Shown here: positions 3,335-64,000 of the stretch, one piece after another | How positions within the stretch are numbered: position 1 is the stretch's first letter | How the letters are laid out: every line of letters begins with the position of its first letter | From: Lytechinus pictus | Taxonomy: Eukaryota | Direction: 5' to 3' | Assembly (NCBI RefSeq): GCF_037042905.1 | Contig: NC_087250.1 | Span: forward strand, 22,632,001 to 22,696,000 | DNA: 64,000 nt | The notes under the pieces: model-generated | What the model saw: the letters and a program-made list of their open reading frames with translations, nothing else | The model's database searches: none | Told to the model about the DNA's origin: nothing | Position numbers and translations under genes: made by a program

Positions 3335-6154
3335 TAGTCTGGTCTGTTAGCGGATTTATGTGGACACGGTGGACAAAAGCATGATTTTTTCTCCAGACCT
3401 TTGTTTATGTATAAGAATTAAAAATGGGGTATGCTCCAAAAAATCTGGCTGCAGGAACAGAGAAAAAATGGGTGAAAATGTCAGAATTTATGAGTTTAGA
3501 TTGGTCTGATATATAGACTAGCGCCAGTGCAAAACTCAATAGCAGTGCATTATTTTACATTGGTTTAGTTCTTGAATTCAGACCCTTTTTGAACAGATGT
3601 TGTTTGTCCTCACATCTCAATGCACCAAATATCTGAATGCAGATGCTAAACAAGCCGAAGGGTGGCGGTGGAGGGGGTTGAATGTTGGTGTGTATGTACA
3701 TATTTTGGTCTTGGGGTAAAGATGTGCAAAACACATTTTTTGTATGTGTTGGAATTGGTGTTGCCATGGTAACAGTGTATTATGGCAAAAATAAGGTAAA
3801 AATCTTGCAGTTAGAACTACTTCCTCTGTTTTCATCCGATTCTCATGAAATTTGGCACACACATTGGTATTGAAGTAAAGATGTACAAGGCACTTTTTGT
3901 GTGTGTTTCAGAAATTGTGTTGCCATGGTAACAACATATTATATGGCAAGATTTAGGTAAAAACCTTGTAATTTGAACTACTTCATCAGTTTTGAACCAA
4001 TTCTCATGAAATTTGGCTCACATATTTGCTTGGGGTAAAGATGACTGTGCAAGAACCATTTTTTGTGCATTTGTCAGAGAGTGCATTGCCATGGTAACCA
4101 CATATGATAGCCAGAAATGCAGGAAAACTCATTGTGGATCAAACTACTTCCCCTGATTTTAGTCAGTGCTCATAAAAGTTGGAAGAAATATTCATCTTGG
4201 GGTAAAGATTCATATTAAATTCTAAATGTCTTCACTGCATTAAAATGTTCACGCCAGAGTGTGGGGGTATGAATCACCTTCAGTAATATTTCTAGGTTTT
4301 GGGGGGAGGGGCGGGATTGGTCCTTAAAATCTGACATCAAAATAAAGAAGGTTAAAGGCGGTGGCCATTAGGAACATAAAAACGATAAACACTCTTAAAA
4401 TAAGCATCCCCTCAATGGCATAGGCTGGGGGTACACTGGGTGAATGTGAAACCTTCCGCTGAGGCAGAGGAGTTCCAACACTGGCAAGCAAAAGGAAAAT
4501 GTGTACCCCTTCTACTTTCAACAGCTGATTTTCCAAACCTTAGTTCCACCTCCCCAAGATGTGCACCCCTCCCCATACCACTTTTAGTTCTACCTCCCCA
4601 TGCTCAAACCAGTCTACGCCTTTGCCCCTCAGGGGTCTTTGCATTATTAAAGCGAGACATTACTCCTTTTTTTTTTTGGGGGGGGGGTCTTTAGAAAATG
4701 ACCTCGTAAAAGTAAAAGGATTTTGACTAGGAACTTAACCCCCTCCCCCCCCCAAAAAAAAATATAGGGGGCAGATATATTTTTTGAGCAGAAAAATGCC
4801 CCCCCCCCACCTTAAAAGGCAAGAAGAGTCCTTTGCACTTCAGATCATTCATTTGAAGTTTAATGCATTCTGATTTGATAAAAATTGTTTACGTACCCAA
4901 TTAATCATTGTTTATTTATATTCTCCTACTCAGTCTTTTTAACTTTATCACATCACTCTTGATTTTGAGCTTCACCATACCATCATCTCCTTCTGTTTCC
5001 TCTCTCCCTTTTTACTCTCTCTCCAAGTATATATTTTCTGACATATTTTTAAGTGTACCTTTAATCATGCAACTAATTATAGAAATATAAATATATACAA
5101 AAATCTCTGCACTTGTTTTAGAAATTCACTTGCAAATCCATGACTCAAAATAAACCATATCAAAAATATACATATGTGTGCAATAGATTTTAGCCTTCTA
5201 TTTTCTTTCATTTCATTTTTTCAGTATATTTCAGTGACAGCCCCTGCTTTATACATCCTACATGTACATCTCCCATTGTCAAAAAATGAATATTATGTTT
5301 CAGTAGCAAAATTGTCGGATGCAAACTCTGACTGTCATAAAAAAAATGCAAATAATTTTCCATTGGAGTAAAGACAAACTTATTCACTGTTCATTGAGCA
5401 AAGATTTAATGATGACTTTTATTTCTCTACATATAATCATATTCTAGTCATATCCCTTTCAGATGGTGGTAACTGCAGGAATGGGAAAACTCAGTGATAA
5501 ACTAAAATTTTCACAGAGGATTTTCGGAAAATAACTAAATCCATTTTTTCAAGCAACAGTTATTCCATTCTGGATGCTGCAACCTTGTTAATATGAATTT
5601 GATGCACCTTTACCAAAATATAATATATCATGACAGTCATTTCTTCAATTCTTTATACTAGACATTAAATATTGCTAATAGTATTATTCAGGACAAAGTC
5701 TAGCCAAAATAGAGTTTAAAAGATTATGAAAAAAATGAATGTCATGGTATTATATTTCGGTGTAGGTGTAAGCATTCAAAATGGAATAATTGTTGCTAGA
5801 TAATAATGGATTAAAATAGCAAATAAAAATGTACTTAGAGAAGGAGACAAAGAGGGGGAGAGAGGAAACAAAACAAGAAGGTATGGAAAGATCAAAAGTG
5901 CAAAAAGTGATGTAAGATAGTCAGAGTAGGAACTGAAATGAACAAAAACTGAGTAGAAGCAAAAATAAAACATTGATTAATAATTGGGCACCGGGAACGA
6001 TCTTCTATCAAAGCAGAATGTTTTAGGCTTTAAATTAATACGCTGAAGTGTAAAAGATTTTTCTCCCCCTTTTTTTTTTGGGGGGGGGGTTAAGTTCCTA
6101 GTCGTAATAATTTCCTTTTACTCTTTATGTGGCAATTTTCTAAAGCCCCCCCCC

Positions 6155-6186
<32 letters not shown>

Positions 6187-7992
6187 AGGGGTGCTTTTTT
6201 TAATAAGAGTGTTTAAGTTCCTAACGGTCATGGCCTTTAACCTTCTATATCTTTATGTTGTCAGTTTTTAATTACCTCCTCCGCCCCCCCCAAAAAAAAA
6301 GAACCTATATTATTCAAAGTGATTAATACCCTGCGCTATCACATGACATTAAAGGGGAATCCAACCCAAATAAACACTTGTTTTTAGAGGAAAAATCAGA
6401 CAGGTTTATAGGTCAAAGTTTGAACAATATCGGACAAACCATTAGAAAGTTGTGAATATATAAAAGTTGTAAACATTGGTAATCACTATACCCATGAAGA
6501 CTTCAAATTGGCGACATATGTGATGTCATAGTGATGTAAGGCAAGGACTACTCTTCCATGTACTGGAATAATTAATTGGCTAAAATGTCTTTTTCAAAAG
6601 TTTTACAAATTATATCATTCTTTCATGAGGACATAAAACAATACACTACCAGGTTCATATTACGGCCCCAATGGAATAGGGATTTAGGAGAGAACCAAAA
6701 ATCCTGATAATTAAGTACAAGGCCTATGGGAAAGTTGTTCTTGCGGCCTCGCCCCTTGTCATAATATACTTACCCAGTTGCCAATTTGAAATCTACATAC
6801 TAGTAGTCTTAGGGATCTTAATTTTAAAGCAACCATAAATTTTGCTTGTCCGATTTCTTTCAAACTTTCACCATTTATATTTTTCTCCTTTTCCACACAA
6901 TATTTTATGACCAAGGCTGGATTCCCCTTTAACACTGAATATGAATCTTTACCCCAAGATGAATATTTCTTCCAACATTTATGAGCACTGACTAAAATCA
7001 GGGGAAGTAGTTTGATCCACAATGAGTTTTCCTGCATTTCTGGCTATCATATGTGGTTACCATGGCAATGCACTCTCTGACAAATGCACAAAAAAATGGT
7101 TCTTGCACAGTCATCTTTACCCCAAGGCAAATGTGTGAGCCAAATTTCATGAGAATTGGTTCAAAACTGATGAAGTAGTTCAAATTACAAGGTTTTTACC
7201 TAAATCTTGCCATATAATATGTTGTTACCATGGCAACACAATTTCTGAAACACACACAAAAAGTGCCTTGTACATCTTTACTTCAATACCAATGTGTGTG
7301 CCGAATTTCATGTGAATTGATTGAAAACTGATGAAGCAGTTTGAATTGTAAGTTTTTTCCCAATTTTTACCATATAATATGTTGTTACCATGGTAACGAG
7401 ATTTCTGAAAGACACACAAAAATGTGTCTAAGACATCTTCACCTCAAGACCAATGTGTGTGCCAAATTTCATGAGAATCGGATGAAAACAGAGGAAGGAG
7501 TTCTAACTGCAAGATTTTTACCTTATTTTTACCATAATACACTGTTACCATGGCAACACCAATTCCAACGCATACAAAAAATGTGTTTTGCACATCTTTA
7601 CCCCAAGACCAAAATATGTACATACACACCAACATTCAACCCCCTCCACCGCCACCCTTCGGCTTGTTTAGCATCTGCATTCAGATATTTGGTGCATTGA
7701 GATGTGAGGACAAACAACATCTGTTCAAAAAGGGTCTGAATTCAAGAACTAAACCAATGCAAAATAATGCACTGCTATTGAGTTTTGCACTGGCGCTAGT
7801 CTATATATCAGACCAATCTAAACTCATAAATTCTGACATTTTCACCCATTTTTTCTCTGTTCCTGCAGCCAGATTTTTTGGAGCATACCCCATTTTTAAT
7901 TCTTATACATAAACAAAGGTCTGGAGAAAAAATCATGCTTTTGTCCACCGTGTCCACAAGTAGGGTATTTTTGACGCTAACAGACCGGACTA
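3335..7992. mobile_element. ~4.6 kb fold-back (long inverted repeat) element
   Basis: 3360-4216 is the near-perfect reverse complement of 6938-7957 (mirror ORFs in the track). Termini are tagtctggtctgttagcg / cgctaacagaccggacta; more diverged inverted matches continue inward to about 5700. Confidence 0.85.
6353..6928. mobile_element. TTAA-flanked MITE inserted in the right arm of the fold-back
   Basis: TTAA-aggggaatccaacc ... ggctggattcccct-TTAA; absent from the left arm. Confidence 0.8.
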
Positions 7993-8419
7993 CATGTACT
8001 GTTCAATACAGAATGCATTTGATTTGGGGAATTGCCTCTACGTCCGATGCCATTTCGTTCAGTGACTATGTCGTCTAATGCTTTTTGGTCCATTATTATA
8101 ATTTTGTTTAATAGCCAGTTAGTCTTTTAAGAGCCACTTCGTCCAAAAGCCACTTCGTCTGTTAAAGAGCCATTTTTTTCCAATAGCCACTTTGTCTATT
8201 AAAAGTTTTGAAATTTAAACTGTCGGAAATAAAATATGTACATGTAGGCCTATAAGACAGAATAATATTTTGTAACATTATATCATGCCATGGCCAGGCC
8301 ACTTCTCCATCATGGTACCGTTTTACCTCCAGAAATGGGAAAAAATAAGAAAAGTGCAACAAATCAAGGTCTAGTCATCAGGCCTATGATGGATTTGGAT
8401 AGCTTTAGGCCTGGTGAAA

Positions 8420-8690
8420 AGATGATGGTGTTGATGATGATGGTGTTGATGATGGTGATGGTGGTGATGGTGATGATGGTGATGGTGATAATGATGATGT
8501 AATGATGATGGTGTTGATGATGATGATTAGGATGATGATGGGGTTGTTGATGAGGATGATGATGGTGATGGTGGTGATGATGATGGTGATGGTGGTGATG
8601 ATTATGAGGGCGGTGGTGATGATGATGGTGATGATGGTAATGGTGATGATGAGAATGATGACGATGGTGATGATAATGACGCTGGTGATT
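8420..8690. repeat. (GAT/GGT)n trinucleotide microsatellite
   Basis: Imperfect gatgatggtgatg run that generates spurious Met/Val ORFs. Confidence 0.95.
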
Positions 8691-9054
8691 ATAGCCTACA
8701 TGTACATTGTATACTGTGCATGTACAGTACGTGTACGTGTACTGTAAAGCCTTCTGTACCAGAAGTGATGATCTTGATTAATATAGTAAAAATAATAATG
8801 ATAATAAAAACAAAACAAAAACATAATGAAAATGATAATACATGCATGACAGTGATAAGTATGATAACCATGGTGGTTGGATCAACCCTAGACAATAGAT
8901 ACCATAATGTACATACGTTTCTCACGGAAACAGATTATTTTAAAACATTGTACATTTCGTATGCAGCTACGCGTAGCATTCATGAATGAGCAAAAAATCA
9001 CAATGTCTATGATGGTTATCGATCGTTAGTTCAGCCAGTCACCCGTACATTTAA

Positions 9055-9626
9055 AGGAGAATGAAACTCTAAGAGCAAGTTAGCTTTTGTGAAAGCAGAA
9101 AAATCAAAGAATAAGATCAACAAAAGTTTGAGTAAAATAGGACTAGCAATAGAAGAGTTATGAGCATTTGAATGTCGAGATCACTAATGCTATGGAGATC
9201 CTCCCATCGGCAATGCGACCAAGATCTATGATGTCACAGATGAACAACTCTCCCCTTTTGGACACTGAAAATATACCCCAAAACATCTCTTTTTGCTCAT
9301 TCTAATCATATGACAAACGATTCATCAATGATATAATGTTGTGAAACCTCTGTACTTGTCCTCTCATAAAGAGAACACCTCACCTTGTGATAGACTCTAT
9401 AAAAGTGAGAATATAAGTGAAATAAGTACTAAAGTAATGAGGGAGTTGTACATGTGTGACATCACAGATCTTGGTCGCATTCCCAATGTGAGGAACTACA
9501 TGGCATTAGTGATCTCAATATTCAAATGCTCATAACTTTCTTATTATTCATTCAATCTTCCTCTAAACTTTCAACAATATGTTTCTTTGATATGGATTCA
9601 GCTGGTTTCAAGGGTTTCATTCTCCT
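9055..9626. mobile_element. TTAA-flanked MITE family B (Kolobok-like)
   Basis: TIR aggagaatgaaac...gtttcattctcct with TTAA on both sides; inverted near-identical copy at 17129-17712. Confidence 0.88.
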
Positions 9627-27397: not shown

Positions 27398-27735
27398 GTT
27401 CTTCCTTTTCCTTGTTTTCCTCTCCGTTTTCTTCTCCTTCTTCTTTCTTCTCCTTCTCCCTCTCCTTCTTCTTCTTCTTGTTCTTCTTTCTTATCCTTCT
27501 TCTTCTTCTTTTCTTCTTCTTCTTCTTCTTTTCTTCTTCTTCTTCTTTTTTTCTTCTTCTTCTTTCCTCTCCTTCTTCTTCCTCTCCTCCTTCCTTTTCT
27601 TCTTCTTTCCTCTCCTTCTCCTTCTCCTTCTTCTTCTTCTTTTCTTATTCTTCTTCTTTTCTTCTTCCTTTTGTCTTCTGCTCCTCTTCCTCTCCCTCTT
27701 CCACTCCACTCCATCCCATCTCCTTTTTTTTCTTC
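27398..27735. repeat. (CTT)n-rich polypyrimidine microsatellite
   Basis: Almost pure C/T tract; source of the low-complexity ORFs here. Confidence 0.95.
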
Positions 27736-27962
27736 CAATTTCTTATTTTCTGTAATATTTACTGTAAATTGCACTGTTTGATTGACAGATGCATACAATT
27801 CGGCTGGTCAATTCCTTTTCTATGAAAGCTTCAGCCCACGTGGCCAAGAACCGTTTTTCACTAGTCTTTGTCATATCAATCCTGATATTATCGTGTTAAT
27901 TGTAAAATAACTGACAATAACTCATTTATGTAATCACATATTATCTCTTCACCAAAATTTAG

Positions 27963-36025: not shown

Positions 36026-36241
36026 GGACTGGACCGAGTGTCGTATGCTACTGCCTCAGATGGCCCACTTTGAGGAGTGGTTCATCATCCTACCCCAAGA
36101 TCAAACCTGGAGGGAGAGCGAGTACATCGATACGGACGAGCTCCGCATCCCTTACGACCTTCTCGAAGGCTACGAAGTCGAGTGTGAGAATTGCTTCCAG
36201 GATCACGTCAATAGGCTCAATGCTGCGAAGAGGAAAGAGAG
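36026..36241 (+). CDS. ARHGAP35: p190 RhoGAP coding exon 5
   Basis: CT-rich acceptor; DWTECRMLLPQMAHFEEWF...RIPYDLL...FQDHVNRLNAAKRKER; donor gtaagt; phase 2-2. Confidence 0.92.
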
Positions 36242-36800
36242 GTAAGTCTTAGGGGGAAATGCATGTTTAGGGGAAACAGAGATGAGTGGGAGGGGGAGCG
36301 GATACATTGATACGGATGAGCTCCACATCCTGTACGACCTCCTGGAAGGCAACGAGATGGAGTGTGAGAATTGCTTCCAAGATCAAGTCAATAGGCTCAA
36401 TGCTGCGAAGAGGAAAGAGAAATGAGTCTTAGGGAGAAATGTGTGTTTGGGGGGAACAGAGATGAGTGCGAGGGGGAGCCGAGCGGATACATTGATACGG
36501 ATGAGCTCCACATCCTGTATGACCTTCTCGAAGGCTACGAAGTGGAGTGTGAGAATTGCTTCCAGGATCACGTCAATAGGCTCAATGCTGCGAAGAGGAA
36601 ACAGAGGTAAGTCTTAGAGGGAAATGCGTGTTTGGGGGAAACAGAGATGAGTCCGAGCGAATACATTGATACGGATGACCTCCACATCATGTATGACCAC
36701 CTGGAAGGCAACGAGATGGAGTGTGAGAATTGCTTCCAAGATCAAGTCAATAGGCTCAATGCTGCGAAGAGGAAAGAGAAATGAGTCTTAGGGGGAAATG
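36110..36800 (+). repeat. Tandem array (4 units, 174-185 bp) of the exon 5 3' half plus donor region
   Basis: YIDTDEL..YDLLEG.E.ECENCFQD.VNRLNAAKRK coding sequence recurs, ending at 36241, 36421, 36606 and 36780. Confidence 0.95.
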
Positions 36801-37082
36801 CGCGTTAAGGGGAAAGAGTGGTATTTGCTAGGGTCAAATGTAAGTTTTTGGGAACATGGACTGAGTTTTAGGGGGAAATTGAGGTGAGTACAAGGGGTAC
36901 ATGTCTGTAAAGGGATAGACTATTTTTCATTCCGCTAAAAGATGACAAGAACATACTTGCCAAAACAATATTGTATGATCTTTTCCGGGATCAAACATAT
37001 GCCCTTGGAAGAAACATGGACATACCACAAAATCTCTACATTGATTCATTGAACATTTTCACCCAATTTCATCTCATTTCAG

Positions 37083-39175: not shown

Positions 39176-39328
39176 ATGGCAGAAGCTATCGGAGATGAGT
39201 CTAGAGCGATACATCATGTTGATAAAGCAACTTGCTTTTGTACATAATCCTACCACAGACAGCTGCTACTATGGAGAGAAGTGTATGGAAAAACTAACCC
39301 AGTGCTGTATAGAACGAACAGTACAAAA
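39176..39328 (+). CDS. ARHGAP35: p190 RhoGAP coding exon 7
   Basis: ttccag|WQKLSEMSLERYIMLIKQLAFVHNPTTDSCYYGEKCME...TVQK|gtgaga; phase 2-2. Confidence 0.92.
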
Positions 39329-39740
39329 GTGAGATTATTTCAACTTTCATTTGAAGCCTCCTTTAGTATAGCTTTAAATAGTAGTTTCATTATTTTAAGA
39401 AGTGTTTGGAAATACTGACTCAATGCTGTATAGAACGAACAGTACAAAAGTGAGATTATTTCAACTTTAATTTGAAGCCTCCTTTAATATAGCTTTAAAT
39501 AGTAGTCTCATTATTTTAAGAAGTGTTTGGAAATACTGACTCAATGCTGTATAGAACGAACAGTACAAAAGTGAGATTATTTCAACTTTTATTTGAAGCC
39601 TCCTTTAATATAGCTTTAAATAGTAGTCTCATTATTTTAAGAAGTGTTTGGAAATACTAACTCAATGTTGTATAGAACGAACAGTACAAAAGTGAGATTA
39701 TTTCAACTTTCATTTGAAGACTCCTTAATATAGCTTTAAA
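39276..39740 (+). repeat. 121-bp tandem repeat x4 containing the exon 7 3' end and donor
   Basis: gtacaaaa|gtgaga donors at 39329, 39450, 39571 and 39692. Confidence 0.95.
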
Positions 39741-40144
39741 TCTAAGTCTCAGGTTTAAAGGGGGAGTGAACTGCGTGTGGTCTCTTATTAACTGTGTGTT
39801 ATAAATACACAGTCTTAAAATATACGTTTTCAGATATCTCCTAATACTACAGAGACTGAATTGACCTATAACTTTATTTGTATAGAGAAACTAATATGAT
39901 TTTAGAGGAAAAGTAATTGTTTTGCTACTTGGTAACATAATTATAAATGTATGGAATAGATGATTAACATGTTATCATTCAAGCGGGTCTATATTACTAG
40001 ACTACACTAGCATTATGGGTCAGGAAACTGGCCAGGTATGAGTAGTTGAGGACTGGAGATGGCGCTATTGATTCGTATCTGCTTTAAGGTCATCTCAAAG
40101 GGACCAGAGATCTTCAACCATGTATATTTTTCTTTTCTTCGCAG

Positions 40145-46269: not shown

Positions 46270-47931
46270 GGATCCTTCCTCCTCTCTTTGTGTTTTCTAC
46301 CTTTTTATCTGTGTCTCTCTGTCCCACTCTGTCTCACTTTTTCTCTTTGTCTCTCTCTTTTGCATTCTCTCTGTCTTTTCCCTGTGTTTCTCTGCCCTAT
46401 ATCTCAGTTTCCCTGTCTTTGTCCTTCTCTTTGTTTCTCAGTCTCCCCTGTCTCACTTTTTCCCCCTTTGTCTCTCTGTCTTGCTGTCTTTGGCATTATT
46501 TGTGGCAGTCGTTATTTTCTAATGTCAGGTTTTTCTGTGTACGAGTACATTAATATGTAGCTCATATAAAGTTGACATGAATATATTTTTCTGCAAAAGC
46601 CTGTTTCATGCCTTCATCCTTTTAATTTTTCCGCCCTTTTCATTTGTTCTCATTATAACTTTCTATCATTTACCCATGTCAATGTTGTATATTTTCCACA
46701 TTTACTTGGTATGGTTAACTATTACATGACCGTATATTATCTTAGTCTTAACCATTGCATCTCCCAACTCTTTGCAAAGATAATTTCATTCTGCAGCAAA
46801 TATTTATTTTATTGTATTCTATTTCTTTCTTGCCTGCTGATTCTTGTATGTTTGTACACGACTTGTAATTTCCATTTGACCACTTTTTGCCTTCTGCTCG
46901 TGTTTATTCAATGTTTTGATTTACCAATTCTTCCTGTTATTATCTCTTTCCCTATCTCCTGTGTCACTCTACTCTTCCACTTCCTCTTCTCTTTGCTTTA
47001 CCTCTTGTTATCACTCTTTGTTTATGATGCTCTTCACAATCTCTTTTCTCCCCCTCTTCCACTTCCTTCCTTTATTTCTTTCTTCCCCTCTATGTCTTTA
47101 TTCTCCTTTCTATCGTTTTGCTTTCCCTTCTCTCGCGTTTTTCACTGTGCCCCCCCCCCTTTTTCAATGACTTTCTTCACAATCTCTTCTCATTCTATTT
47201 TTCTCTCTATGACTCTATATCTCTTTATCATACTCTTACCTTCCTCTTGTATTCTCTCATTTTGTCTCTCTTTCCTTTATTTCTTTCTTCCCCTTCCTAT
47301 GTTATTCACTCTTTCCTTACTCCTTTTTGTTTTCCCTACTTATTCTTTGCTGTGCCCCTTTTTTCTATTTGAGTTCGTTCACAATCTCTTCTCATGCTAT
47401 CTCTCTCTCTCTCTCTCTGACTTTATTTTTCTTTGTCTTACTCTCCTATTCCTCTTGTTTTGCTCTCATTCTTTCTCTCTTAGTATCCCCCTCTCTAACT
47501 TGCTTGTCCTTTGTCATATCTCTTGTATTTTCTTCTTGTATTTTCTCTTCATTCTTCCCTCTCAAATTTGCTATCCTTCTCCAATCTCTTTGTCTCACTC
47601 TCCTTCTCTTCTGCTTGTATTCTCTCATTCTTTCTCTCTTAGTACCCCCTCTCTAACTTGCTTCCCCTTTGTCATATCTCTTCTTGTATTTTCTCTTCAT
47701 TCTCCCCTCTCTCAAATTTGCTATCCTTCTCCAATTTCTTTGTCTCACTCTCCATCTCTTCTCCTTGTGTTCTCTCAATCTTTCTCTCTCTGCCTTTCAT
47801 TGCACCTCACCCTCAATCCCTTCCCATATCATGATGTATATGCTTATCACTGCACCATCTGATCATTTGCATGCTTTTCTCATCTGCTACTTGCACACAC
47901 ACACACTCACCTATTTTCCTTCACCTATGGT
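46270..47931. repeat. Long pyrimidine-rich low-complexity tract with a ~159-bp internal duplication (47464-47790)
   Basis: C/T-dominated; the duplicated unit carries ctctctaac. Confidence 0.85.
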
Positions 47932-47933
47932 AG

Positions 47934-48029
47934 GATTGGCATGTGCATAGCGTGTGGTGATCCCTTCTCACCTGAATTAGTACTGCCTTTTCTCAGGACG
48001 CACAACTGCAGCCTCTCTGCTTTAGATAG
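47934..48029 (+). CDS. ARHGAP35: Candidate alternative (duplicated) exon 12a of p190 RhoGAP; may be a pseudoexon
   Basis: tag|G IGMCIACGDPFSPELVLPFLRTHNCSLSALD, paralogous to the exon 12b start with the same phase; 96 nt if the weak donor AG|gtacac is used. Confidence 0.5.
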
Positions 48030-48994
48030 GTACACCACTCTTACTCATTCATGCCACCTTTTCATTTTGCACACTACCTTATGGTATCCAACAGAATTGA
48101 GCACACTCCTTATTACTGTAACTCTTCACTCAATGATTTTATAGAATTCAAACAGTATGTGAAAATATTTAAAGATGATACACCTTTATGACAGGATACT
48201 TCATATTTTATGACTATGAAGCTTTTGTTTCAAATACAGGTGTATACAAAGCTTAACAACATATCCTTGAGGGATGTACTCACTTCTGTTGGATACTATA
48301 CTGCACATTAAACCTTGCTAAATACCTTATATTGCTATCTTGTATTACTATTCCTATACATTACTTCAATCACATTTATTTTTGGATTGTTTTCAAATAT
48401 ATGATGTTTGGCTTCTAATCATTTTTCCATATTCCATAAGACTAGTATTTTTTTGGTAAATTTCATTTACTTTGAGAACTCTATCATGTGTAGATAAAAT
48501 TCTTCATACATAATATTTTGCCATGTTTAAGTTTTTATCAAGTTGTATAAGATGTATTTTTTAGTAGAAAAATCAAAGATAGTGCAAATAAAAACACTTG
48601 ATTTTTTTCTGATTGTAATGCTGACCTATAAATGTAGCATTTCCTATGGGTTGGTGTCCTCTCTCTAGTGTTGTTATATATGTATAATGTAGAAAGTAGC
48701 AACGTATGTTATTGGCAAGATAAAGAGTGTATAAAATAGGGAAAAGACCTTGATAGAAAACAAATGTTTCTTGACAATTTCATTTTCCAAGGCAGAGGGA
48801 ATACTTAAATACATAAAAAAAACCTTTGTTGAAAAGTATGCGTAGAATTTTGATATGTTGGTATAAAGCAGGTCTGGTCTAAAACGACATTCCTGATTTG
48901 ACCTCATTTTGACCTCATTTGCATAACTCCTCCCCCAATCCACCACCACCACCACCAATATCACCAACACGTTCACCCTTCTCTACCCCATCAG

Positions 48995-49252
48995 GATCGG
49001 CCTATGCATGACTTGCGGTGACCCCTTCCAGCCGGACCTCGTCTTGTCGCCGATCACGAGCCACAACTTCATGGCCACGCCCAACGAGAAGAACTGCATC
49101 ACGAGCGACTTGTTCCTCATCGATACCAAGTGCCGGGTGGACTTTGAGATCTCTTCGTATCATCTCAGTGAGAGCCTACGGGACCAGCGGGTTCACCATG
49201 GCTACATCCTCGTCTATGCAGCTCAACGGAAGGCATCACTGGAGATGCTAAG
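48995..49252 (+). CDS. ARHGAP35: p190 RhoGAP coding exon 12b (pG2)
   Basis: IGLCMTCGDPFQPDLVL...HHGYILVYAAQRKASLEML|gtatgt; phase 2-2. Confidence 0.94.
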
Positions 49253-49829
49253 GTATGTTGAAATACAGTCAACTCTTAGGAGCGTTTCACAAAAGGACTT
49301 GTCGGACATTTCATTTGACAAGTCCATTTTATCCAGCAGTTTCCTTTGTAACCATGCTTCTCAGGCAATCAAAACCAAGGAAAGAAGTCAGATCTGACAT
49401 CTTGTTGGACAGACATTTTGATGAAGGGTTCCCTGATATGTGTTTCATAAAGCTATTCATGATATTACCAAGAACTTTTGGAAGGACTGGAACGTGTTCT
49501 TAGGTGATAATTCAGTTATATATGGATTATCGTGTCGCGTAAGAATGGGTCACAAGTCGTGCGTTTAGTCTTTCATAACTTACGAACAGCTTATGAAAAG
49601 GCCTCTATGTGTGTATAGAAGGTCTAACTTGCGTTTTCCCTCTTCCTGTATAATATTCTTACCTTCAAGCTACAAGAAGTTACAGGGTCACACAAGTATT
49701 AAGTACCCTGAGCTGCTTCCGGGAATTTTTGGTCATTGTCAGTTGTGAGAATTACTACTTCTTCTGTCATACAAATACCTGTACAAGAATGAATAACTAC
49801 AACATGATGATTTTCTTGTCTTATTTCAG

Positions 49830-55477: not shown

Positions 55478-57870
55478 TACGTATGCATGTTAAGTATGGT
55501 AATGGTAATCTGTATACCAGTATGTATGTGGGAATCGCTTTTCATGTTTAGCAGTGGGAAAAAGTAAAAAGGTATAAATTTTGGATATTTAGGAATGTAA
55601 ATAAATTATTTATGAATCTAGGAGTGAAATTACAAGAGTAGTTCAGTCTGTATTGGATGGGTAATAGAATTTAGCTTGCTTTTACCGCTTCATGGATGTA
55701 AATTTGCTCCCAGTTAAAAGTTGCCCAGTCTGGGCCCTCTTGTATGAAAGTTACTGGTAACTTCACCATACAATTGCAATTGCCATGGTAACAATGCTCA
55801 ACAGCCAATCAAAATCAAGGATTTTATGGAAATAACCAATGGATGGTAAGGTTACAATAGAGGTAACTTTCGGGCAATTCCATAAAATGATCAACCTTTT
55901 TTTTACGTCCTACGCCCATTTTTCTCAGGTTTTGCTTCACTTCATAAACTGACAAAGTCATGATCCATTGAAAACATAACAGACTGTCAAAAGAACAAGA
56001 AATCAGAGACAGAAATTTCATGACGTACATATTTTATGGAATTGCTCTTACATGTAATTGCAATAGGGCCATCTGAAGTACTTTGAATCCATAGTAGTGG
56101 TATTATGATGAAATAACCTATATACCACGCATACCCAATTAGATATTCTATTCAAGCTCTATGAGAGTAAAAAGAGCGTAGTATTTGATTACCTTTAATT
56201 GCCTTGAATGGCAATTAATTTTGAGATTTCAATCTTGAATTTTAAACAAAAGGGAAATTTATCAACAATTATATATGATGAAGGGAATTATGATTATGAT
56301 TCAGAGGAAACACAAAAATAAGTGATACTGGCCCAGAATCTGTTTATGATGTCTGAATCATTTTAATTAATATCATCCTCCATCTTGGCTTAATAATGAT
56401 GAAGTCTTGCCTTCGTTTCTTTCATACACCTATTGTTATAATGATTCAACCATCAGCATTAATTTATCTGATGTTGATTATTTCCTTTCAAAGCTGAGTG
56501 AAATTCATTTAGAAAAACAGTTAAAAGTTTGCTCATTTAGATTATGTCCTTTCAGAGCATAGTGAATTTCATTAAAAAAAACGAAATAAAAAAATGGAAT
56601 TGGTGAAAGTGCATTAACTTTCCTGACTCTTGTTCTAATTTATCCTTTCTTCATTTTCCACCCTTCCACCCCTCACATGTTGGCTTCCTATTCCTCTCCT
56701 CAACCCCCTATTCAATTAATGGTATCTCCCTATTAATGCAATGTGTGTTCCTTTTTTTGTATTGTAATGAATTGTGTTTTTTTTTGCTTTAACTTCCCGT
56801 ACATGCAAACGTGTTGTTCCTATGGTGTAAATATACTGTATTTTTTATCCTTGTAATTGTTGGCACATCAAGTGTTATTTTCCTTTCCTTTTTTCATTGT
56901 ACTTTCCTCTTTCTTTATTGCCTCCATAAACTGTCTTTGTCTTCAATTGACTGTTGATTTTATATCTGTTATTGTGTTATTTTTTGGTCTCACAATTTTT
57001 TTTGTCTTTTGTCTGCATCTTTGCCTTTATATGGCTTACTAATTTGGTGTCTGTATTTCTTTTGGGTTAAATCATATTAATATATTCATTTATTGCTACT
57101 TCAAATGTTCATCTCAACAATATTTGTGTGTCACCATAATTTCTTCTGGATATTGATTGATTTTTTATTTCATTTTCATTTCATTTGTTCAATGTTACAA
57201 ATAATGAAAATTACCAAATTCTTTTTCCATTATTTCTCATGAATTGGAACCTTGGTATTTCTTTTATGTTTGCCCACTGGATTTGATTTTCAAATTCTTT
57301 GGTTTCAAATTTGAATCAAACTTCAACATTTTGTGTTATTTACACATCTTGCACTTTCCCCCTTTTCTCATTTGGAAAAAAAATGATGAACAAATCCTCT
57401 ATTTTAATAATTATTTCATTTTATTATTATATGGTCCCACATGCTCTGTTTTATGTTGTCTATGTCTCATAACGCTTTTGCATCCCTACGATTTTATGTA
57501 TATTAATCATCATGGCTTGCGTAATATATTCAAATATTGCTATATTGTATAAATTCCTCTTGATGCATACAAATTTCCCATTATTGTATGAGTTGGTAAT
57601 AATCTCTTGCCTTGCATCTGATTCAAGTTGCCCCCCTCTATTTATTGATACCTTTCAATTCTATCCCTTTTCTACTCTGAATACATCTTGATAATTTGCA
57701 TAAAAATGGAATACCTTCACTTTGATTTGATGATATCCGAACGGTCTGCATGATGTGGTTGGTCTCAATATCTATATATGCATACGTGTTGCATGATGCA
57801 CCGTGCCCCGCCCTGCCCATCCCCACCCCCATTACCAATGATGCCACCCCACCCACCCCCCTTCCAATAG

Positions 57871-58002
57871 GCTTCACCCCTGAGTTTGTACCCCGCCAGA
57901 GATCCGTTTCTTCGGAAGCGGTGGTCCACGATCCCCTGGTTAAGCCCAGTGAAATACGCAACCGCATGAGGCTACAGCAGCAGTCCCATATTAGCTTCCG
58001 AG
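57871..58002 (+). CDS. ARHGAP35: p190 RhoGAP coding exon 16 (linker, phase 1-1, possibly cassette)
   Basis: caatag|GFTPEFVPRQRSVSSEAVVHDPLVKPSEIRNRMRLQQQSHISFR|gtaaaa; GC-richer than flanks; 132 nt. Confidence 0.75.
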
Positions 58003-58042
58003 GTAAAAGAATGAACGTCTCGTTTTAGTATAAAATATTTAA

Positions 58043-58622
58043 ACGGATGGTCCGGGCTGAAAATATTTATATCTTAATACATAGAGTAGAATTCATTGAG
58101 CAAAATGCCGAAAATTTCATCAAAATCGGATAACAAATAATAAAGTTATTGAAGTTTAAAGTTTAGCAATATTTTGTGAAAACAGTTGTCATGAATATTC
58201 ATTAGGTGGGCTGATGATGTCACATCTCCACTTTCCGTTTTCTTATGTTATTACATAAAATCATATTTTTTTCATTATTTCATACTTGTGTGAATAATAT
58301 GTCTCTCATATAATGAAATAAGTTGCAGCAATAAATATCTAATGCACTAAATCAATTGTCAATCCAATTTTTTTAGTTCTTGGAGGAAAAAATTGAATAA
58401 ACCTAATTTCATATAATAAAATACAAAAGAACAAGTGGAGATGTGACATCATCTGCCCACCTAATAAATATTCATGACGACTGTTTTCACAAAATATTGC
58501 TAAACTTTAAAATTCAATAACTTTGTTATTTTTTATCAAATTTTCATGAAATTTCGGCATTTTGCTCAGTGAATTCTACTCTGTTTGTTAAGCTATAAAT
58601 ACTTTCAGCCCGGACCATCCCT
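58043..58622. mobile_element. TTAA-flanked MITE with ~200-bp TIRs, 40 nt after the exon 16 donor
   Basis: ggatggtccgggctgaaa / tttcagcccggaccatcc plus long subterminal symmetry. Confidence 0.85.
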
Positions 58623-60026
58623 TTAAACGGATAAATATTGCGAATAAACCCTTTGTTGAATGTTGAGTGTTTTTTGTGAAATTATAGCGTCCAGAGCGTC
58701 ATGCCTGACTGATGTGTACGCTCTGGAAGAATCCTCTGATTATTAATAATTTGACCAAATTTGTCATTTTTTCATATTTTCTGAGTACACAGTAGTGTTC
58801 TTGAAATTTGAACAAATTAAATCAGTGAATAAAGCCTTTGTGAATGCAGAATATTGTGCGATTCAGGAACTCTCTGTTTCGATGAAGAAATGGAGGGACA
58901 AGCATCATATACCTGTAATGCTTTGCCCCTCTAATATTTTTGTCTGCTCAGTAAGTTCTGTCGCCATTAAATTGAAGGCACTCTAGCCCTTAAATTATGC
59001 CTTTAAAATGTCCCTAAACCGAGTCATTTAGGTTTCTGGGCATATACCTATCATTTAATACTTATTCAGTTATAAAAGTAATTATGAGATATATTGCGTA
59101 CAGGTTTGATGTAAGCATAATTCTTTATACCTACATGTATCTAGTATCATGAATATTACCTTTTGTTGTATTATTACCCATTCTTCATTCAATGTTTAAT
59201 CACTCTCCCCTTCAATAGTAATGAACTTGTGATAAACATGTTTTGAATATTTATTCAATTGAGTGCAGATAGTCTGTTAATCTTAACCAGGCTATTACAT
59301 GTATTTCATTACTCATTTAAATCGTCCATTCAAAATCTCCAAAATATAAGTACACATGTTGGTGCCCATAATGTGTATCGCATTTCATTTGACTGTGGTA
59401 TGAGAGCAGTATACATGCAGATAAAATGCCTTTACTGAATAAAGCATAAGTGCTAGGCTGGGGATTGAACCCTGGACCTTTTTATTGGTTGAGTTGGTGC
59501 CCAAGGTTACTTGACCACTTCACCATTGTAGATGTTTGTTCATATTCAGCAAGAATTGGGGATCAGTGATCTTTTGGAGAAAGATTTGCGTTTAAATATC
59601 AAGCGCAAATCCATGAGCACTTTTGATTGGTTAAAAAAACCAAGTTGCGTTTGATTTTCTGAGTTGCGTTTGATTGTAACTTGTTCTGAGGTTCTGCAGC
59701 GGGCCCCAAGGTTTTGTTCAAATTAAAGTGTTGTGCAAAGAGGTGTGATGAATTCAAGGCAAACTCACAATGACATTGGTGTTACTATAAATATAAAAGA
59801 AAAAAAAAATGAATCAATTGAATCTATTTGAGAGAAAGGTTCCTAAGAGTTTAGATCCTTCAAATTTTATTCAGGTTTGGATTAATTGCAAGTTTTCGTG
59901 AGGCTGTCTCCTTGGCCCTCTAACGCAAACCTTAGCGATCGATTATGGATCTGATTAATGATACATTGCAATGATCATTATATACAAATCAATCTTACCA
60001 ATCAATTATATGATCAATTGCTAAGC

Positions 60027-60429
60027 TTAAAGGTAAATTCCAGTTCTGGTAACGATCTCAAAATGACTTTTTACAGAATCTAATATAATGACCACCCAAG
60101 TGTCTGTTTGTATGAATAAAAAATATGTGCCAAAGGATTCTGGAAGAAATTGTGTAATTGCTGAGAAATAAGCAAAATAAGCACGGATTCGGTCACTTCC
60201 GTCGGGTCTTTATTCCAGCAATAATAATACACTGTCCCACGTGTGCCTATCTGTGTTGGCGATCTTCAGTGTGATCGTATTTCAGCTTAGATTTTATGAT
60301 TTCACAAAGTTCAGTTTATGTAACTGTACCAGATCTAGATCCACGATGATATAGTCATACTTAACCTTGGTTTTACAGACTTTCTCACGAAATCAGTGTT
60401 TTACTGCAACTACTGTAATTTAGCTTTAA
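60027..60429. mobile_element. TTAA-flanked element family A
   Basis: Near-identical to 2601-3000. Confidence 0.82.
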
Positions 60430-60834
60430 TATCATTGGCCCTTGGTAGGTGTTTCATAAAGCTGTTGGGAAGTTACAAGCAAACAAATGAATAGTTACCC
60501 TTTCTTGTGGTAGATAATAGACACTAGATTTTCATTGGTGTTGATGTAGTTCCTAAGAAAGGGTCACCAGTCGTTTGTAAAGTCACTCGTAACTTATAAA
60601 CAGCTTTTTGAAATGACCACCTGAACTTCTTAAATTTATGTTTAAAATGGCTTTCCTCATAAAGAAAAAAAAAAAAGAAAGACCGAATTCATATGAAAAA
60701 ACCTTACGTAAAATGAATAGCACCCTGTCAAGTTCAAAATAAAGAAGTTTCTGTTATTTTCTGCAGAAAAGTTAACCAGTTTTCTTATCATTTGTAATAA
60801 TATTTATTATTATGTATCTGTTTTATTATGTCAG

Positions 60835-60906
60835 GTGTGGAAGACCAGTTATATGATGAGATTGGTCATCAGCAATCTAGATGGGCACCAAAACCCAGTA
60901 ATGAAG
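60835..60906 (+). CDS. ARHGAP35: p190 RhoGAP coding exon 17 (linker, phase 1-1)
   Basis: gtcag|GVEDQLYDEIGHQQSRWAPKPSNE|gtgaat; 72 nt, open frame. Confidence 0.72.
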
Positions 60907-60939
60907 GTGAATATACATATATACTTCCTCAAAGATCAA

Positions 60940-61650
60940 TGAAAATGATACCCCTCATTGTGATAGAAATATACCTGTCATTATGATGAAGAAAAATAAT
61001 TTACATGAGTCCATATTCCTATGATACACCTCAACCTTATGAAAATAAAGTTTACAAACTGGTTTACAACATTATTCCATATTTCCTCCACGATTATTAA
61101 GATGAAGATACATGTAATGTTGATTTCCAATATTCCAAATTCCTTCTGATATTATCGATTATAATACCCCTCTTTATGGCTTGAATGTCATCCCTCTCAT
61201 GATAAAGATTACAAATAATTTACAGAATTATTCCATATCCCTATGACTGAAAAATATGTTTCTCCCAAAATGATAAGATTAATTCTTTTTTTTTGTTTAT
61301 AATTGAGTGATAAAGATTAGTAATTGAGTTACACCATTAATCCACATTCCTTCTGAGATGCAAGACTATTTTACCCCTCTTTATGAGACAAATATCATAC
61401 CCCTCTCTATGATAGCAATATCATACCCCTTGTGATAAAGATTGCAAATAATTTACACCATTATTTTGTAATATGACTGAAAAATATGTTACCCCTAATA
61501 AAAAATGGAATAGCGTTCCCATCATTGTGATAACGATAACATATTGATTTACAGCATTATTCCACCTCCCCTCTCAGACAAAGATTACAATTGAATTTCC
61601 ATTAATTGAGTAATGAAGATCACAAATTGATTTACAGCATAATTCCATTT
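60940..61650. repeat. Degenerate tandem repeat downstream of exon 17
   Basis: Recurring tgataaagattacaaataatttacaccattattcca / cataccccctc motifs. Confidence 0.65.
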
Positions 61651-63321
61651 TCCATATTATGTTAACTGTTATCATTGGCTTTGCTTCAGAGGGAAAATGG
61701 CAATTGTTTTAAATATTGATATCACTTGCAAATTGGTGCTCATGTACATGTATAGCAGACATTGAATGAAAAGCTTCTCATTGCGATATTTCGTGGTTCG
61801 AATTGATACATAACACTTGCTATGGATATTACATAGCTTACAGTATTTACATCTGCCAATTGATAATTTTCTCATCCCTTTTCAAGTCATGATAAAAACC
61901 ACATGTACCATCTTAGTCCCAGGTAAACTCTTTTTTTTTTTGCCTGGAGTCCAGAGTGCGTGCCTGGTTGCGTTTAGCCTTTTGCTTGATCACGTTTTAA
62001 CAAGCGTTTGTTTAATGATTGCCGGACCATGCCGTCATTTTCATGCTAGTACATTCATTCTGCTTTAATAGTGTAGTTATGAATAAAAGAAAATTGAGGG
62101 TAACTTTGCTCAAAGTTTTATTTTGAATTAATCTTATAAACACATCATTCTCATGGCACTGCGCAGAGAGTTCATGCGATTTGATTAACCATGTGGGGTA
62201 GATCATTAATTCCATCATGACTTTGCATTAATTGCTACTTGTCTTCTCAAGTGTTTGTTTATTACTCTGGGTCTGGGAGGGGCCTTGTGAAGTGGTTTTT
62301 AGGGTTGATTTGCCCTGCATGCTACATTTTAAAGCAAAATTCTGTTCTGGGATTAGGTTTGCAGTGTTGATATGCCTGGAAAGAGGGAAATCAATAAGAT
62401 TTTAATCTTCTTTTCCCTTTCATTTTTAAAAGTTGTCTTGAAGATTCAATTTTTTTCTGAAATCAAAGAAGCTTCTTCATGATTAAGAGGATTTTATTCA
62501 CGTGCAGTTCGGCATAAGATTAAGTTTTTCTGCTCATAATTGGCATTTAAGCATTGTGAAACTTATTGATACAATATTGCACTGTGTATCATTGATGAGC
62601 AAATCAGGGTTTTAGAGGTTTGCTGTGTTTGAGATTTTTATTTTTATTTTTTGTTTGGTGTAAAAGAGGGAAAACCAACTTTTTTGATTCTGCAAAATGA
62701 TACGGGCAAAGTATGACAGTCACTGTTCTCTTTTCCATTAATGTAACAAAGTATGGAAATTTCTGTTTCTTTATGGTTTTATTGATGTGAGGATTTATTT
62801 TGTACTATCATTTCTTTTTTATTACCTTTTCTTTTCCCCACCTGCTTGCCGATCTGTGCTTCAATATTGCATTATCCTACCCTATAAAATTACCTTGTGT
62901 ACATGTTTGTCCCCCCATGGCTTTTTCCTCTCCCTATAAAATCCCATTAAACCATTACCATAAACCACATCTCCTATGACTTTTCTTCCCTCCCTATACA
63001 ATTTCATTATACCATTACCTTGTATGTATGTCCCCCATATGACTTTTCCCCCTCTCCTTATACGATCCCATCATGCACCTCATTTAATATCTCTTCCTTT
63101 TGCACTGAATAACTTAAAACCCCATCCCTTATATAATCATGTTATCGTACTTCCTTACATCACTTATTTCTCTTATGTAATTCCTGTCCTTGTCTTTGCC
63201 CCATGCATTTTGTCCCATGCATTTCTTAATAACCCTACTGATCGTATTACTCCTCCTGATACAAACCCATTACACTCCCATTATTTCCTCATCATTCTGA
63301 TGAATTAAAATATACTCTCTC

Positions 63322-63560
63322 TTTTACCACTCCTTATACCACTCCTACCACTTTTTATACCACCCCTTATACCACTCCTTATACCAATGCTTGTACCACT
63401 CCTTGCACCAATCCTTCACCACTCCTTATACCAATCCTTATAATGTACTCCCCTTTTACCATATCTTATACCTATCCTCATACCATCCTTTATCCTTACA
63501 CCAATCCTTTTACTAATCCATATACTACCTCTTATACTAATCCTTATACCATCCCTCATA
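63322..63560. repeat. 12-bp minisatellite (ccactccttata)
   Basis: Degenerate tandem copies. Confidence 0.85.
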
Positions 63561-63712
63561 TTTCTGTTATATCACATGGTGTCTTGTACTACATTATTTC
63601 ACTTCCAAAACCCATTTTTATACATAATTTTCCATCATACTTTCAATTTCCCATGACCAATACCAAACCCTTATGCAAACCCAATGTCTTATACCCCTTC
63701 CCCGGTAAGCAG

Positions 63713-63826
63713 CTCGTATGTACCACACAGCCAACTATGAATCCAGGCAGCGGCGATGGGGCTCTGAGGTGAGGCGAAAGCCTAATTTACCGTTGCCCTC
63801 GACACCACAGAGCACTGGGACAGAAG
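63713..63826 (+). CDS. ARHGAP35: p190 RhoGAP coding exon 18 (linker, phase 1-1; NAGNAG acceptor 63710/63713)
   Basis: aag cag|(A)RMYHTANYESRQRRWGSEVRRKPNLPLPSTPQSTGTE|gtatag. Confidence 0.68.
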
Positions 63827-64000
63827 GTATAGGTTTGGTTGATGAATATTTCTCTGTCTCTGTATTTGTGCATCGTTCGTACATGTACCTGTTCCTGTAT
63901 TGTGCATTGTGTTGCCTTAGTCTATCAAACCAATATACCTTATACTCTCTTAATATCTTATACTGTAAAAGTGGGACAAAGGGTTAAGCTTTCATTAATA

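Follow-up and report, generated by a model that had tools for sequence, protein, structure and literature searches.

A 916-nucleotide AG-free intron end before a tandem acceptor in a p190-RhoGAP-like gene of the sea urchin Lytechinus pictus

Why should the last third of an intron, close to a kilobase of it, be free of the dinucleotide AG? The question is raised by a 64,000-nt stretch of the Lytechinus pictus genome (RefSeq assembly GCF_037042905.1, contig NC_087250.1, positions 22,632,001 to 22,696,000 of the forward strand), hereafter the window, whose own coordinates are used below. It carries part of a p190-RhoGAP-like gene, and in one intron of this gene the 916 nt leading up to the acceptor of a 114-nt cassette exon, the target exon, hold not a single AG. 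We conclude that this tract is probably a genuine AG-exclusion zone, guarding the tandem NAGNAG acceptor of a conserved and occasionally skipped exon. As such it is a very long addition to a known class and one of five such zones in one gene.

By protein similarity the host gene is the L. pictus p190-RhoGAP-like (rho GTPase-activating protein 35/5-like) gene, since its plus-strand open reading frames (ORFs) match NCBI predicted isoforms under that name at 100% identity in L. pictus, 98% in L. variegatus and 88% in Strongylocentrotus purpuratus. Exons were placed by tblastn of the proteins on the window plus 46.7 kb downstream, which gave 37 acceptors from 20932 to 109141; positions past the end of the window are given as window equivalents. 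The features around the tract are these (a slash marks a splice junction):

62792..63707, plus strand: AG-free tract, 916 nt, the 3' third of a 2,806-nt intron; a C/T/A-rich, G-poor mosaic of decayed tandem repeats
60835..60906, plus strand: upstream exon, 72 nt (...VEDQLYDEIGHQQSRWAPKPSNE), with the donor of the tract-bearing intron
63707-63712, plus strand: tandem NAGNAG acceptor AAGCAG; AAG ends at 63709 and CAG at 63712
63713..63826, plus strand: target cassette exon, 114 nt, phase 1-1, 38 amino acids (ARMYHTANYESRQRRWGSEVRRKPNLPLPSTPQSTGTE), donor AAG/GTATAG

The first-pass annotation of this DNA had reported no AG from 62792 to 63707, and a scan for AG confirms it: there are none on the plus strand over these 916 nt, the flanking AGs lying at 62790-62791 and 63708-63709. 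This is the longest AG-free run of the window, the runners-up measuring 720, 577 and 390 nt. The tract is poor in G (A 24.8%, C 31.2%, G 5.6%, T 38.4%), and the annotation had proposed comparing AG with GA as a check on whether depletion of G suffices to explain the deficit. It does not. Base composition predicts 12.6 each of AG and GA, and the tract has 11 GA and no AG; in 20,000 mononucleotide shuffles AG averaged 12.7 and never fell below 2, so that no shuffle lacked it. AG is the sole dinucleotide of the 16 to be missing, even CG (5) and GG (3) being present, while TG (42) and TA (101) are abundant; the excess of TG would fit a decay of CpG together with A-to-G changes in the plentiful TA. 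The 51 G of the tract are spread over 47 distinct 7-mer contexts, mostly outside a 12-nt repeat array described below, so they amount to nearly independent events, none of them after an A. Given this spread and the GA count, the absence of AG is explained neither by scarcity of G nor by copying of repeats. The distal part alone (-921 to -203 from the exon) has no AG against 9.7 expected, with GA at 10, and the 1,886 nt of the same intron that lie 5' of the tract have 82 AG and an ordinary composition.

Two sets of repeats make up much of the tract:

63310..63560 (about), plus strand: degenerate 12-nt tandem array, unit approximately CTTATACCACTC, copies 64-81% alike
62883..63049, plus strand: decayed direct repeats of 60 nt and of 121-125 nt, 73-83% alike

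With copies only 64-83% alike the repeats must be old; many substitutions have accumulated in them, and yet none has created an AG. We rejected a dispersed repeat or transposon as the identity of the tract, which in a search of the 811.7-Mb assembly (a search that skips simple repeats) matched itself alone. Rfam gave for 56000-64000 only a sub-threshold match to MIR2646 (25 bits, E=0.031, where the gathering score is 245), and among DNA contigs of another organism none at least 85% alike was found at the central bin of the tract. Coding function was likewise rejected: there are long ORFs (e.g. 63260-63772), as expected where TAG and TGA are rare, but RNA reads are absent there.

The annotation's further claim, that the tract ends exactly at the AAGCAG acceptor, also holds, and both AGs of this acceptor are used in annotated predicted isoforms. 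CAG, with the exon starting at 63713, is the main annotated acceptor (...SNE/ARMYH), and AAG is used by L. pictus isoform X2 (...SNE/AARMYH), so that the first AG after the tract is itself an annotated acceptor. The other predicted isoforms that contain the exon read NEARMYH in L. pictus and L. variegatus and NEARIYH in S. purpuratus. The site is thus a NAGNAG acceptor in the usual sense, an intron ending in AAGCAG with both AGs used in predicted isoforms. The proximal AAG also sits within GGTAAG (63704-63709), which resembles a 5' splice site and lies 3 nt before the main acceptor.

The target exon preserves the reading frame and is conserved in L. variegatus and in S. purpuratus, where its peptide is nearly identical (ARIYHTANYESRPRRWG...). 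Among 41 full-length predicted isoforms (the short or partial proteins P0018, P0042 and P0043 being left out) it is present in 14 of 16 from L. pictus, 9 of 12 from L. variegatus and 12 of 13 from S. purpuratus, and skipped in 2, 3 and 1, respectively. In the two skipping models of L. pictus, X5 and X10, the next cassette follows directly on the upstream exon. RNA depth was taken per bin from two stranded runs depleted of ribosomal RNA and carrying the same species label, about 6% of each run being read; all reads have the first mate on the minus strand. Mean depth in the two runs was 4.23 and 4.67 in the bin of the upstream exon and 8.39 and 7.34 in that of the target exon. Scaled for exon length, this is about 20-25-fold at both exons, so the target exon is mostly included in both RNA samples. 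Depth was zero in the three bins (L002 2005-3006) that cover the tract except its first 13 nt and its last nt, which fall in bins that also contain flanking sequence. Of the suggestion that this is a regulated cassette exon, the cassette stands, skipped as it is in predicted isoforms of three species; regulation finds no support in the two RNA runs, in both of which depth is about that of the upstream exon.

Is the tract an isolated oddity of the gene? We defined the zone of an acceptor as the AG-free run upstream of it, ignoring AGs at most 12 nt from the acceptor, a rule that puts the target zone at 921 nt. Across the 37 acceptors the median zone is 53 nt, and five zones reach at least 243 nt. 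By the criterion of Gooding and colleagues, no AG for at least 100 nt upstream of a used 3' splice site, the target exon thus belongs with the long zones, at 921 nt. The five, and one further long run, are as follows:

63713-63826, plus strand: target exon, preceded by the 921-nt zone
68746-68823 (window equivalent): next cassette exon, 78 nt (AHYTQVERRGSEPVRPTVALTARSHQ), preceded by a 647-nt zone; zone and exon together 68099-68823 (genomic 22700099-22700823)
108624-109141 (window equivalent): 518-nt zone ending at the CAG acceptor of the exon at 109142
47643..47931, plus strand: 289-291-nt zone, ending at the TAG that precedes an exon-like sequence at 47934, a paralogue of exon 12
57628..57868, plus strand: 243-nt zone, ending at the TAG acceptor of a 132-nt cassette exon at 57871-58002
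56873..57590, plus strand: AG-free run of about 718 nt, AG expected 18.9, GA 16; ends at GAG, 280 nt upstream of the cassette exon at 57871-58002, with no known exon at its end

The ten longest sense-strand AG-free runs of the gene span (20281-110700) measure 918, 720, 647, 577, 518, 390, 291, 263, 243 and 214 nt. In five of them the run stops precisely at an acceptor, and with 37 acceptors among 4,492 AGs this has a hypergeometric P=7e-9, or P=7e-7 without the alternative exon 12, which is unverified. Pooled, the ten runs hold no AG against 76 expected and 68 GA, and the longest antisense (CT-free) run of the same span is 219 nt.

Several of these zones deserve a description of their own. The 647-nt zone has, 22 nt after the AG that precedes it, a perfect TACTAAC, one of 3 on the sense strand in 110.7 kb, followed by about 600 nt rich in T and C and then an A-rich end with only 8 pyrimidines in the 20 nt before its TAG acceptor, the poorest of the 37 acceptors; judged by its sequence it has the classical distant-branch-point layout and is the gene's best candidate for a distant branch point. 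The 518-nt zone is 31% A and 9% G, with AG expected 15.1 times and GA found 11 times, and has TACTAT 9 nt after its opening AG. The cassette exon at 57871-58002, missing from 15 of 16 L. pictus isoforms, has in the roughly 1.26 kb before it (56610-57868) three AGs only, at 56871, 57591 and 57626. GAG is a poor acceptor, and because the 718-nt run ends at one, the effective zone of this exon may far exceed 243 nt. The GAG is followed by GGTAAT (57591-57599), much as GGTAAG occurs at the target acceptor. The exon-like ORF at 47934-48126 (IGMCIACGDPFSPELVLPFLRTHNCSLSALD...) is 32-36% identical to exon 12 (48995-49256) and was found in no isoform of the 41 studied; it could have arisen by exon duplication and may be mutually exclusive or dead.

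Where, then, would the branch point of the target exon lie? Three places offer candidates:

63670..63709, plus strand: conventional 3' splice-site region, with CTTAT placing a branch A at 63673 (-40) and at 63691 (-22), and the pyrimidine run CCCCTTCCCC (10 nt, 63694-63703)
63511-63517 and 63535-63541, plus strand: two TACTAAT motifs, branch A at -197 and -173, within the 12-nt array
62803..62839, plus strand: TACTATC (62803-62809), a putative distal branch site 13 nt past the opening AG, with a 30-nt T/C-rich tract (62810-62839) behind it; the motif was chosen post hoc

Motifs do not decide among them. YTNAY occurs 41 times in the 943 nt searched, 38 of these in the tract, where dinucleotide shuffles give 42, and because ordinary introns of the gene also use weak YTNAY sites such motifs cannot discriminate branch points. 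CTRAY, absent within 170 nt of the target acceptor, is likewise absent from most ordinary introns of the gene; few of them have one where expected, and we rejected it as a discriminating motif. The two TACTAAT motifs to which the annotation had pointed are present, near 63511 and 63535 as it said, but are no more than chance provides (ACTAAY 2 against 1.0 in dinucleotide shuffles). TACTAW lies 9-36 nt after the opening AG in the three longest exon-abutting zones and in none of the other seven runs; with 61 occurrences in 110.7 kb it is expected in about 2% of 40-nt windows, a figure to be read with the motif and the window having been chosen after the data were seen. The annotation had also held that a branch point within 40 nt of a constitutive acceptor would refute its reading. 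YTNAY motifs at -22 and -40 together with CCCCTTCCCC make a conventional candidate, so a branch point within 40 nt may exist.

A structural means of bringing a distant site to the acceptor was considered and set aside as marginal. The predicted fold of the tract closes by a 10-bp pairing of 62842-62851 (CTGCTTGCCG) with 63703-63712 (CGGTAAGCAG), at -17.9 kcal/mol, which would join the acceptor to a site just 3' of the first pyrimidine tract of the zone. As many as 31 of 1000 dinucleotide shuffles match it, however, and G-rich segments further upstream in the intron pair better with the acceptor region (-22 kcal/mol); no analogous helix was found in the other long zones of the gene.

Branch points have been mapped 100-400 nt from their acceptors (Gooding et al. 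2006, PMC1431707), that of rat alpha-tropomyosin exon 3 lying at -175, and the same source predicts a zone of 1126 nt for human PTPRS and one of 590 nt for Fugu PTB exon 11. The target zone, unusually long as the annotation said, has a precedent for its length in PTPRS. The acceptor is described as found by scanning from the branch point, and long zones are tied to distal branch points and to exon skipping (PMC1431707, PMC5378181). The target exon resembles these distant-branch-point exons in having a long, AG-free, pyrimidine-rich intron end that stops at the used acceptor, in being skipped, and in having, close to where its zone opens, a candidate branch-site-like motif followed by a pyrimidine tract (PMC1431707). 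It differs in that the host is an echinoderm; in that its zone, at 921 nt, exceeds their mapped 100-400 nt and its branch site is a matter of motif candidates, one of them conventional; and in that its tract is no clean polypyrimidine but 25% A and made of decayed repeats, with five such exons in one gene. Lariat mapping (Taggart et al. 2017, PMC5378181) found that a distal branch point is often accompanied by another in the expected zone, and that its chief effect is to slow splicing. The distal sites mapped there are associated with skipped exons, and such coexistence is what our favoured mixed model supposes for the case in hand; those data are from vertebrates and fission yeast, with all distances above 100 nt binned together. 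The acceptor is like other tandem NAGNAG acceptors (PMC3250501) in that the intron ends in AAGCAG and the annotated isoforms differ by one codon (NEARMYH against NEAARMYH), and unlike them in ending a 916-nt AG-free tract and in having its AAG within GGTAAG. Our literature search found no paper joining distant branch points and sea urchin.

If the tract is an AG-exclusion zone, its history and function might run as follows. It would have arisen as C/T/A-rich tandem repeats that have since decayed, and in the RNA it would read as one very long pyrimidine-rich stretch full of degenerate branch-site-like motifs. The spliceosome picks the first suitable AG 3' of the branch point, and an AG newly arisen behind such a tract would be a strong competing acceptor; because any AG there would extend or disrupt the exon, selection would have eliminated the changes that create one. 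Both the first AG beyond the tract and, 3 nt on, the CAG are used in annotated isoforms, in NAGNAG competition, and one or more branch points would lie far upstream, possibly alongside the conventional ones at -22 and -40. We accordingly favour mixed use, in which distal and conventional branch points may both serve. That a major branch point of the target exon lies more than 100 nt upstream we hold to be a little short of an even bet, and we doubt a position near -900, where the tract opens. Similarly improbable is the specific proposal of a branch point about 900 nt upstream at TACTATC and its pyrimidine tract, with the same design (TACTAW 9-36 nt after the opening AG, and between it and the acceptor 0.5-0.9 kb of RNA poor in G and free of AG) at the 921-, 647- and 518-nt zones.

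Two other accounts of the tract have to be set against its being an AG-exclusion zone. It could be a neutral by-product, a G-poor tandem repeat that expanded beside an ordinary acceptor with its branch point at -22 or -40, the lack of AG then reflecting composition, inheritance among repeat copies and the picking of an extreme case. Such things exist: among long zones are some that consist of repeats and have their branch site in the normal place, as in a 369-nt example with its branch site at -17 whose mouse orthologue has a zone of 31 nt (PMC1431707). The target tract is like them in being made of repeats, the 12-nt array and those of 60 and 121 nt, and in that YTNAY motifs and a pyrimidine run by the acceptor make a plausible conventional branch site; its G content, too, is only 5.6%. 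It is unlike them in that its repeats are old and diverged, in that 51 G never follow an A, and in that GA stands at its expected level. Copies that have diverged by 17-36% without gaining any AG, zero AG against 12.6 expected beside 11 GA, and G in 47 distinct contexts mostly outside the array are hard to obtain by composition and copying. Pyrimidine-rich AG-free runs with no exon at their end do occur, both in the gene and in 200 kb of nearby genome, where both strands together have 19 AG-free runs of at least 199 nt. The AG expectation of these background runs is at most 3.8, however, except in one of 229 nt, the only one where it passes 10. Long pyrimidine-rich AG-free runs are thus not rare in this genome, and runs expected to hold 12-19 AG are. 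Acceptor-ending runs are also far too frequent in the gene for a by-product (P=7e-9 to 7e-7), and the long runs are confined to the sense strand. We regard this account as unlikely. That the tract is mainly a regulator platform, on which a splicing regulator binding pyrimidine tracts (PTB-like), YCAY (Nova-like) or ACUAAY (QKI-like) controls exon inclusion, the absence of AG being secondary, seems to us less likely still. It would suit a cassette exon in three species, vertebrate long pyrimidine tracts between distal branch point and acceptor do carry regulator sites (PMC1431707), and the neighbouring 647-nt zone looks rich in TCTT and CTCTCT by eye. The motif counts of the target tract speak against it: YCAY 42 against 38.7 expected, TCTT 12 against 9.5, CTCTCT 2 against 0.5 and ACTAAY 2 against 1.0, none significant. 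The TCTT count was reached in 122 of 500 dinucleotide shuffles and that of CTCTCT in 52 of 500, so that there is no PTB-type enrichment in the tract, and tests of TGCATG and YGCY there gave none either. No regulation was seen between the two RNA runs, and binding alone does not account for a complete lack of AG.

Several observations weigh against the AG-exclusion reading all the same. Selection, as the presumed cause of the missing AGs, is argued from a single sequence. The tract is built from repeats, and repeat-only long zones with a normal branch site have been described (PMC1431707). None of YCAY, TCTT, CTCTCT, YTNAY and ACTAAY is enriched over dinucleotide shuffles. The branch points named here are all candidates by motif; a conventional one, CTTAT at -22 and -40 with the 10-nt CCCCTTCCCC, adjoins the acceptor, and ordinary introns of the gene depend on weak YTNAY motifs too. 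Five of the ten longest runs (720, 577, 390, 263 and 214 nt) end at no known exon, and the three longest AG-free stretches on either strand of the nearby 200 kb measure 701, 700 and 526 nt, though at most 3.8 AG are expected in any of them. The target exon is, finally, mostly included, in 14 of 16 isoforms and by an RNA depth close to that of the upstream exon.

What is at stake differs with the account. Were the tract only a repeat, it would be an ordinary low-complexity intron segment. If selection keeps it AG-free, there is nearly 1 kb of intron in which one base change could create an acceptor and damage the protein, and the gene's five such exons would make it a compact natural setting in which to study the search range of the spliceosome for 3' splice sites. 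The 647-nt zone, with its perfect TACTAAC, and the 921-nt zone would then be direct candidates for the longest known distances from branch point to acceptor. Should a branch point some 900 nt upstream be real, the second catalytic step would find its AG over distances 2-3 times the longest mapped so far, and sea urchin genes would use such tails systematically, perhaps delaying splicing where many cassettes combine.

The locus has other repeats besides those of the tract. At 36109-36815 coding-like exon 5 sequence (EYIDTDELHILYDLLEGYEVECENCFQDHVNRLNAAKRKER) is reiterated in a tandem repeat of 180-185 nt (3.9 copies, 85% alike), with four tblastn copies 75-90% identical to the annotated protein. 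Another tandem repeat, of 121 nt (39277-39741; 3.9 copies, 95% alike), gives three further copies of a segment made up of the 3' end of exon 7 and the beginning of the following intron. A microsatellite of TTC/CTT type occupies 27399-27786 (388 nt, 92% pyrimidine on the sense strand), 175 nt before exon 4. Dispersed repeats, probably transposable elements, lie in the intron after the target exon (L002:3675-5344, 5679-7014 and 8017-9352); depth over them is very high in DNA contigs of a related species and in RNA reads on both strands. Some 500 kb upstream of the window there are two T-rich runs without AG, each about 700 nt long, on opposite strands and separated by 1 kb (L020:3113-3812, minus; L020:4853-5553, plus), in the manner of a divergent or inverted pair.

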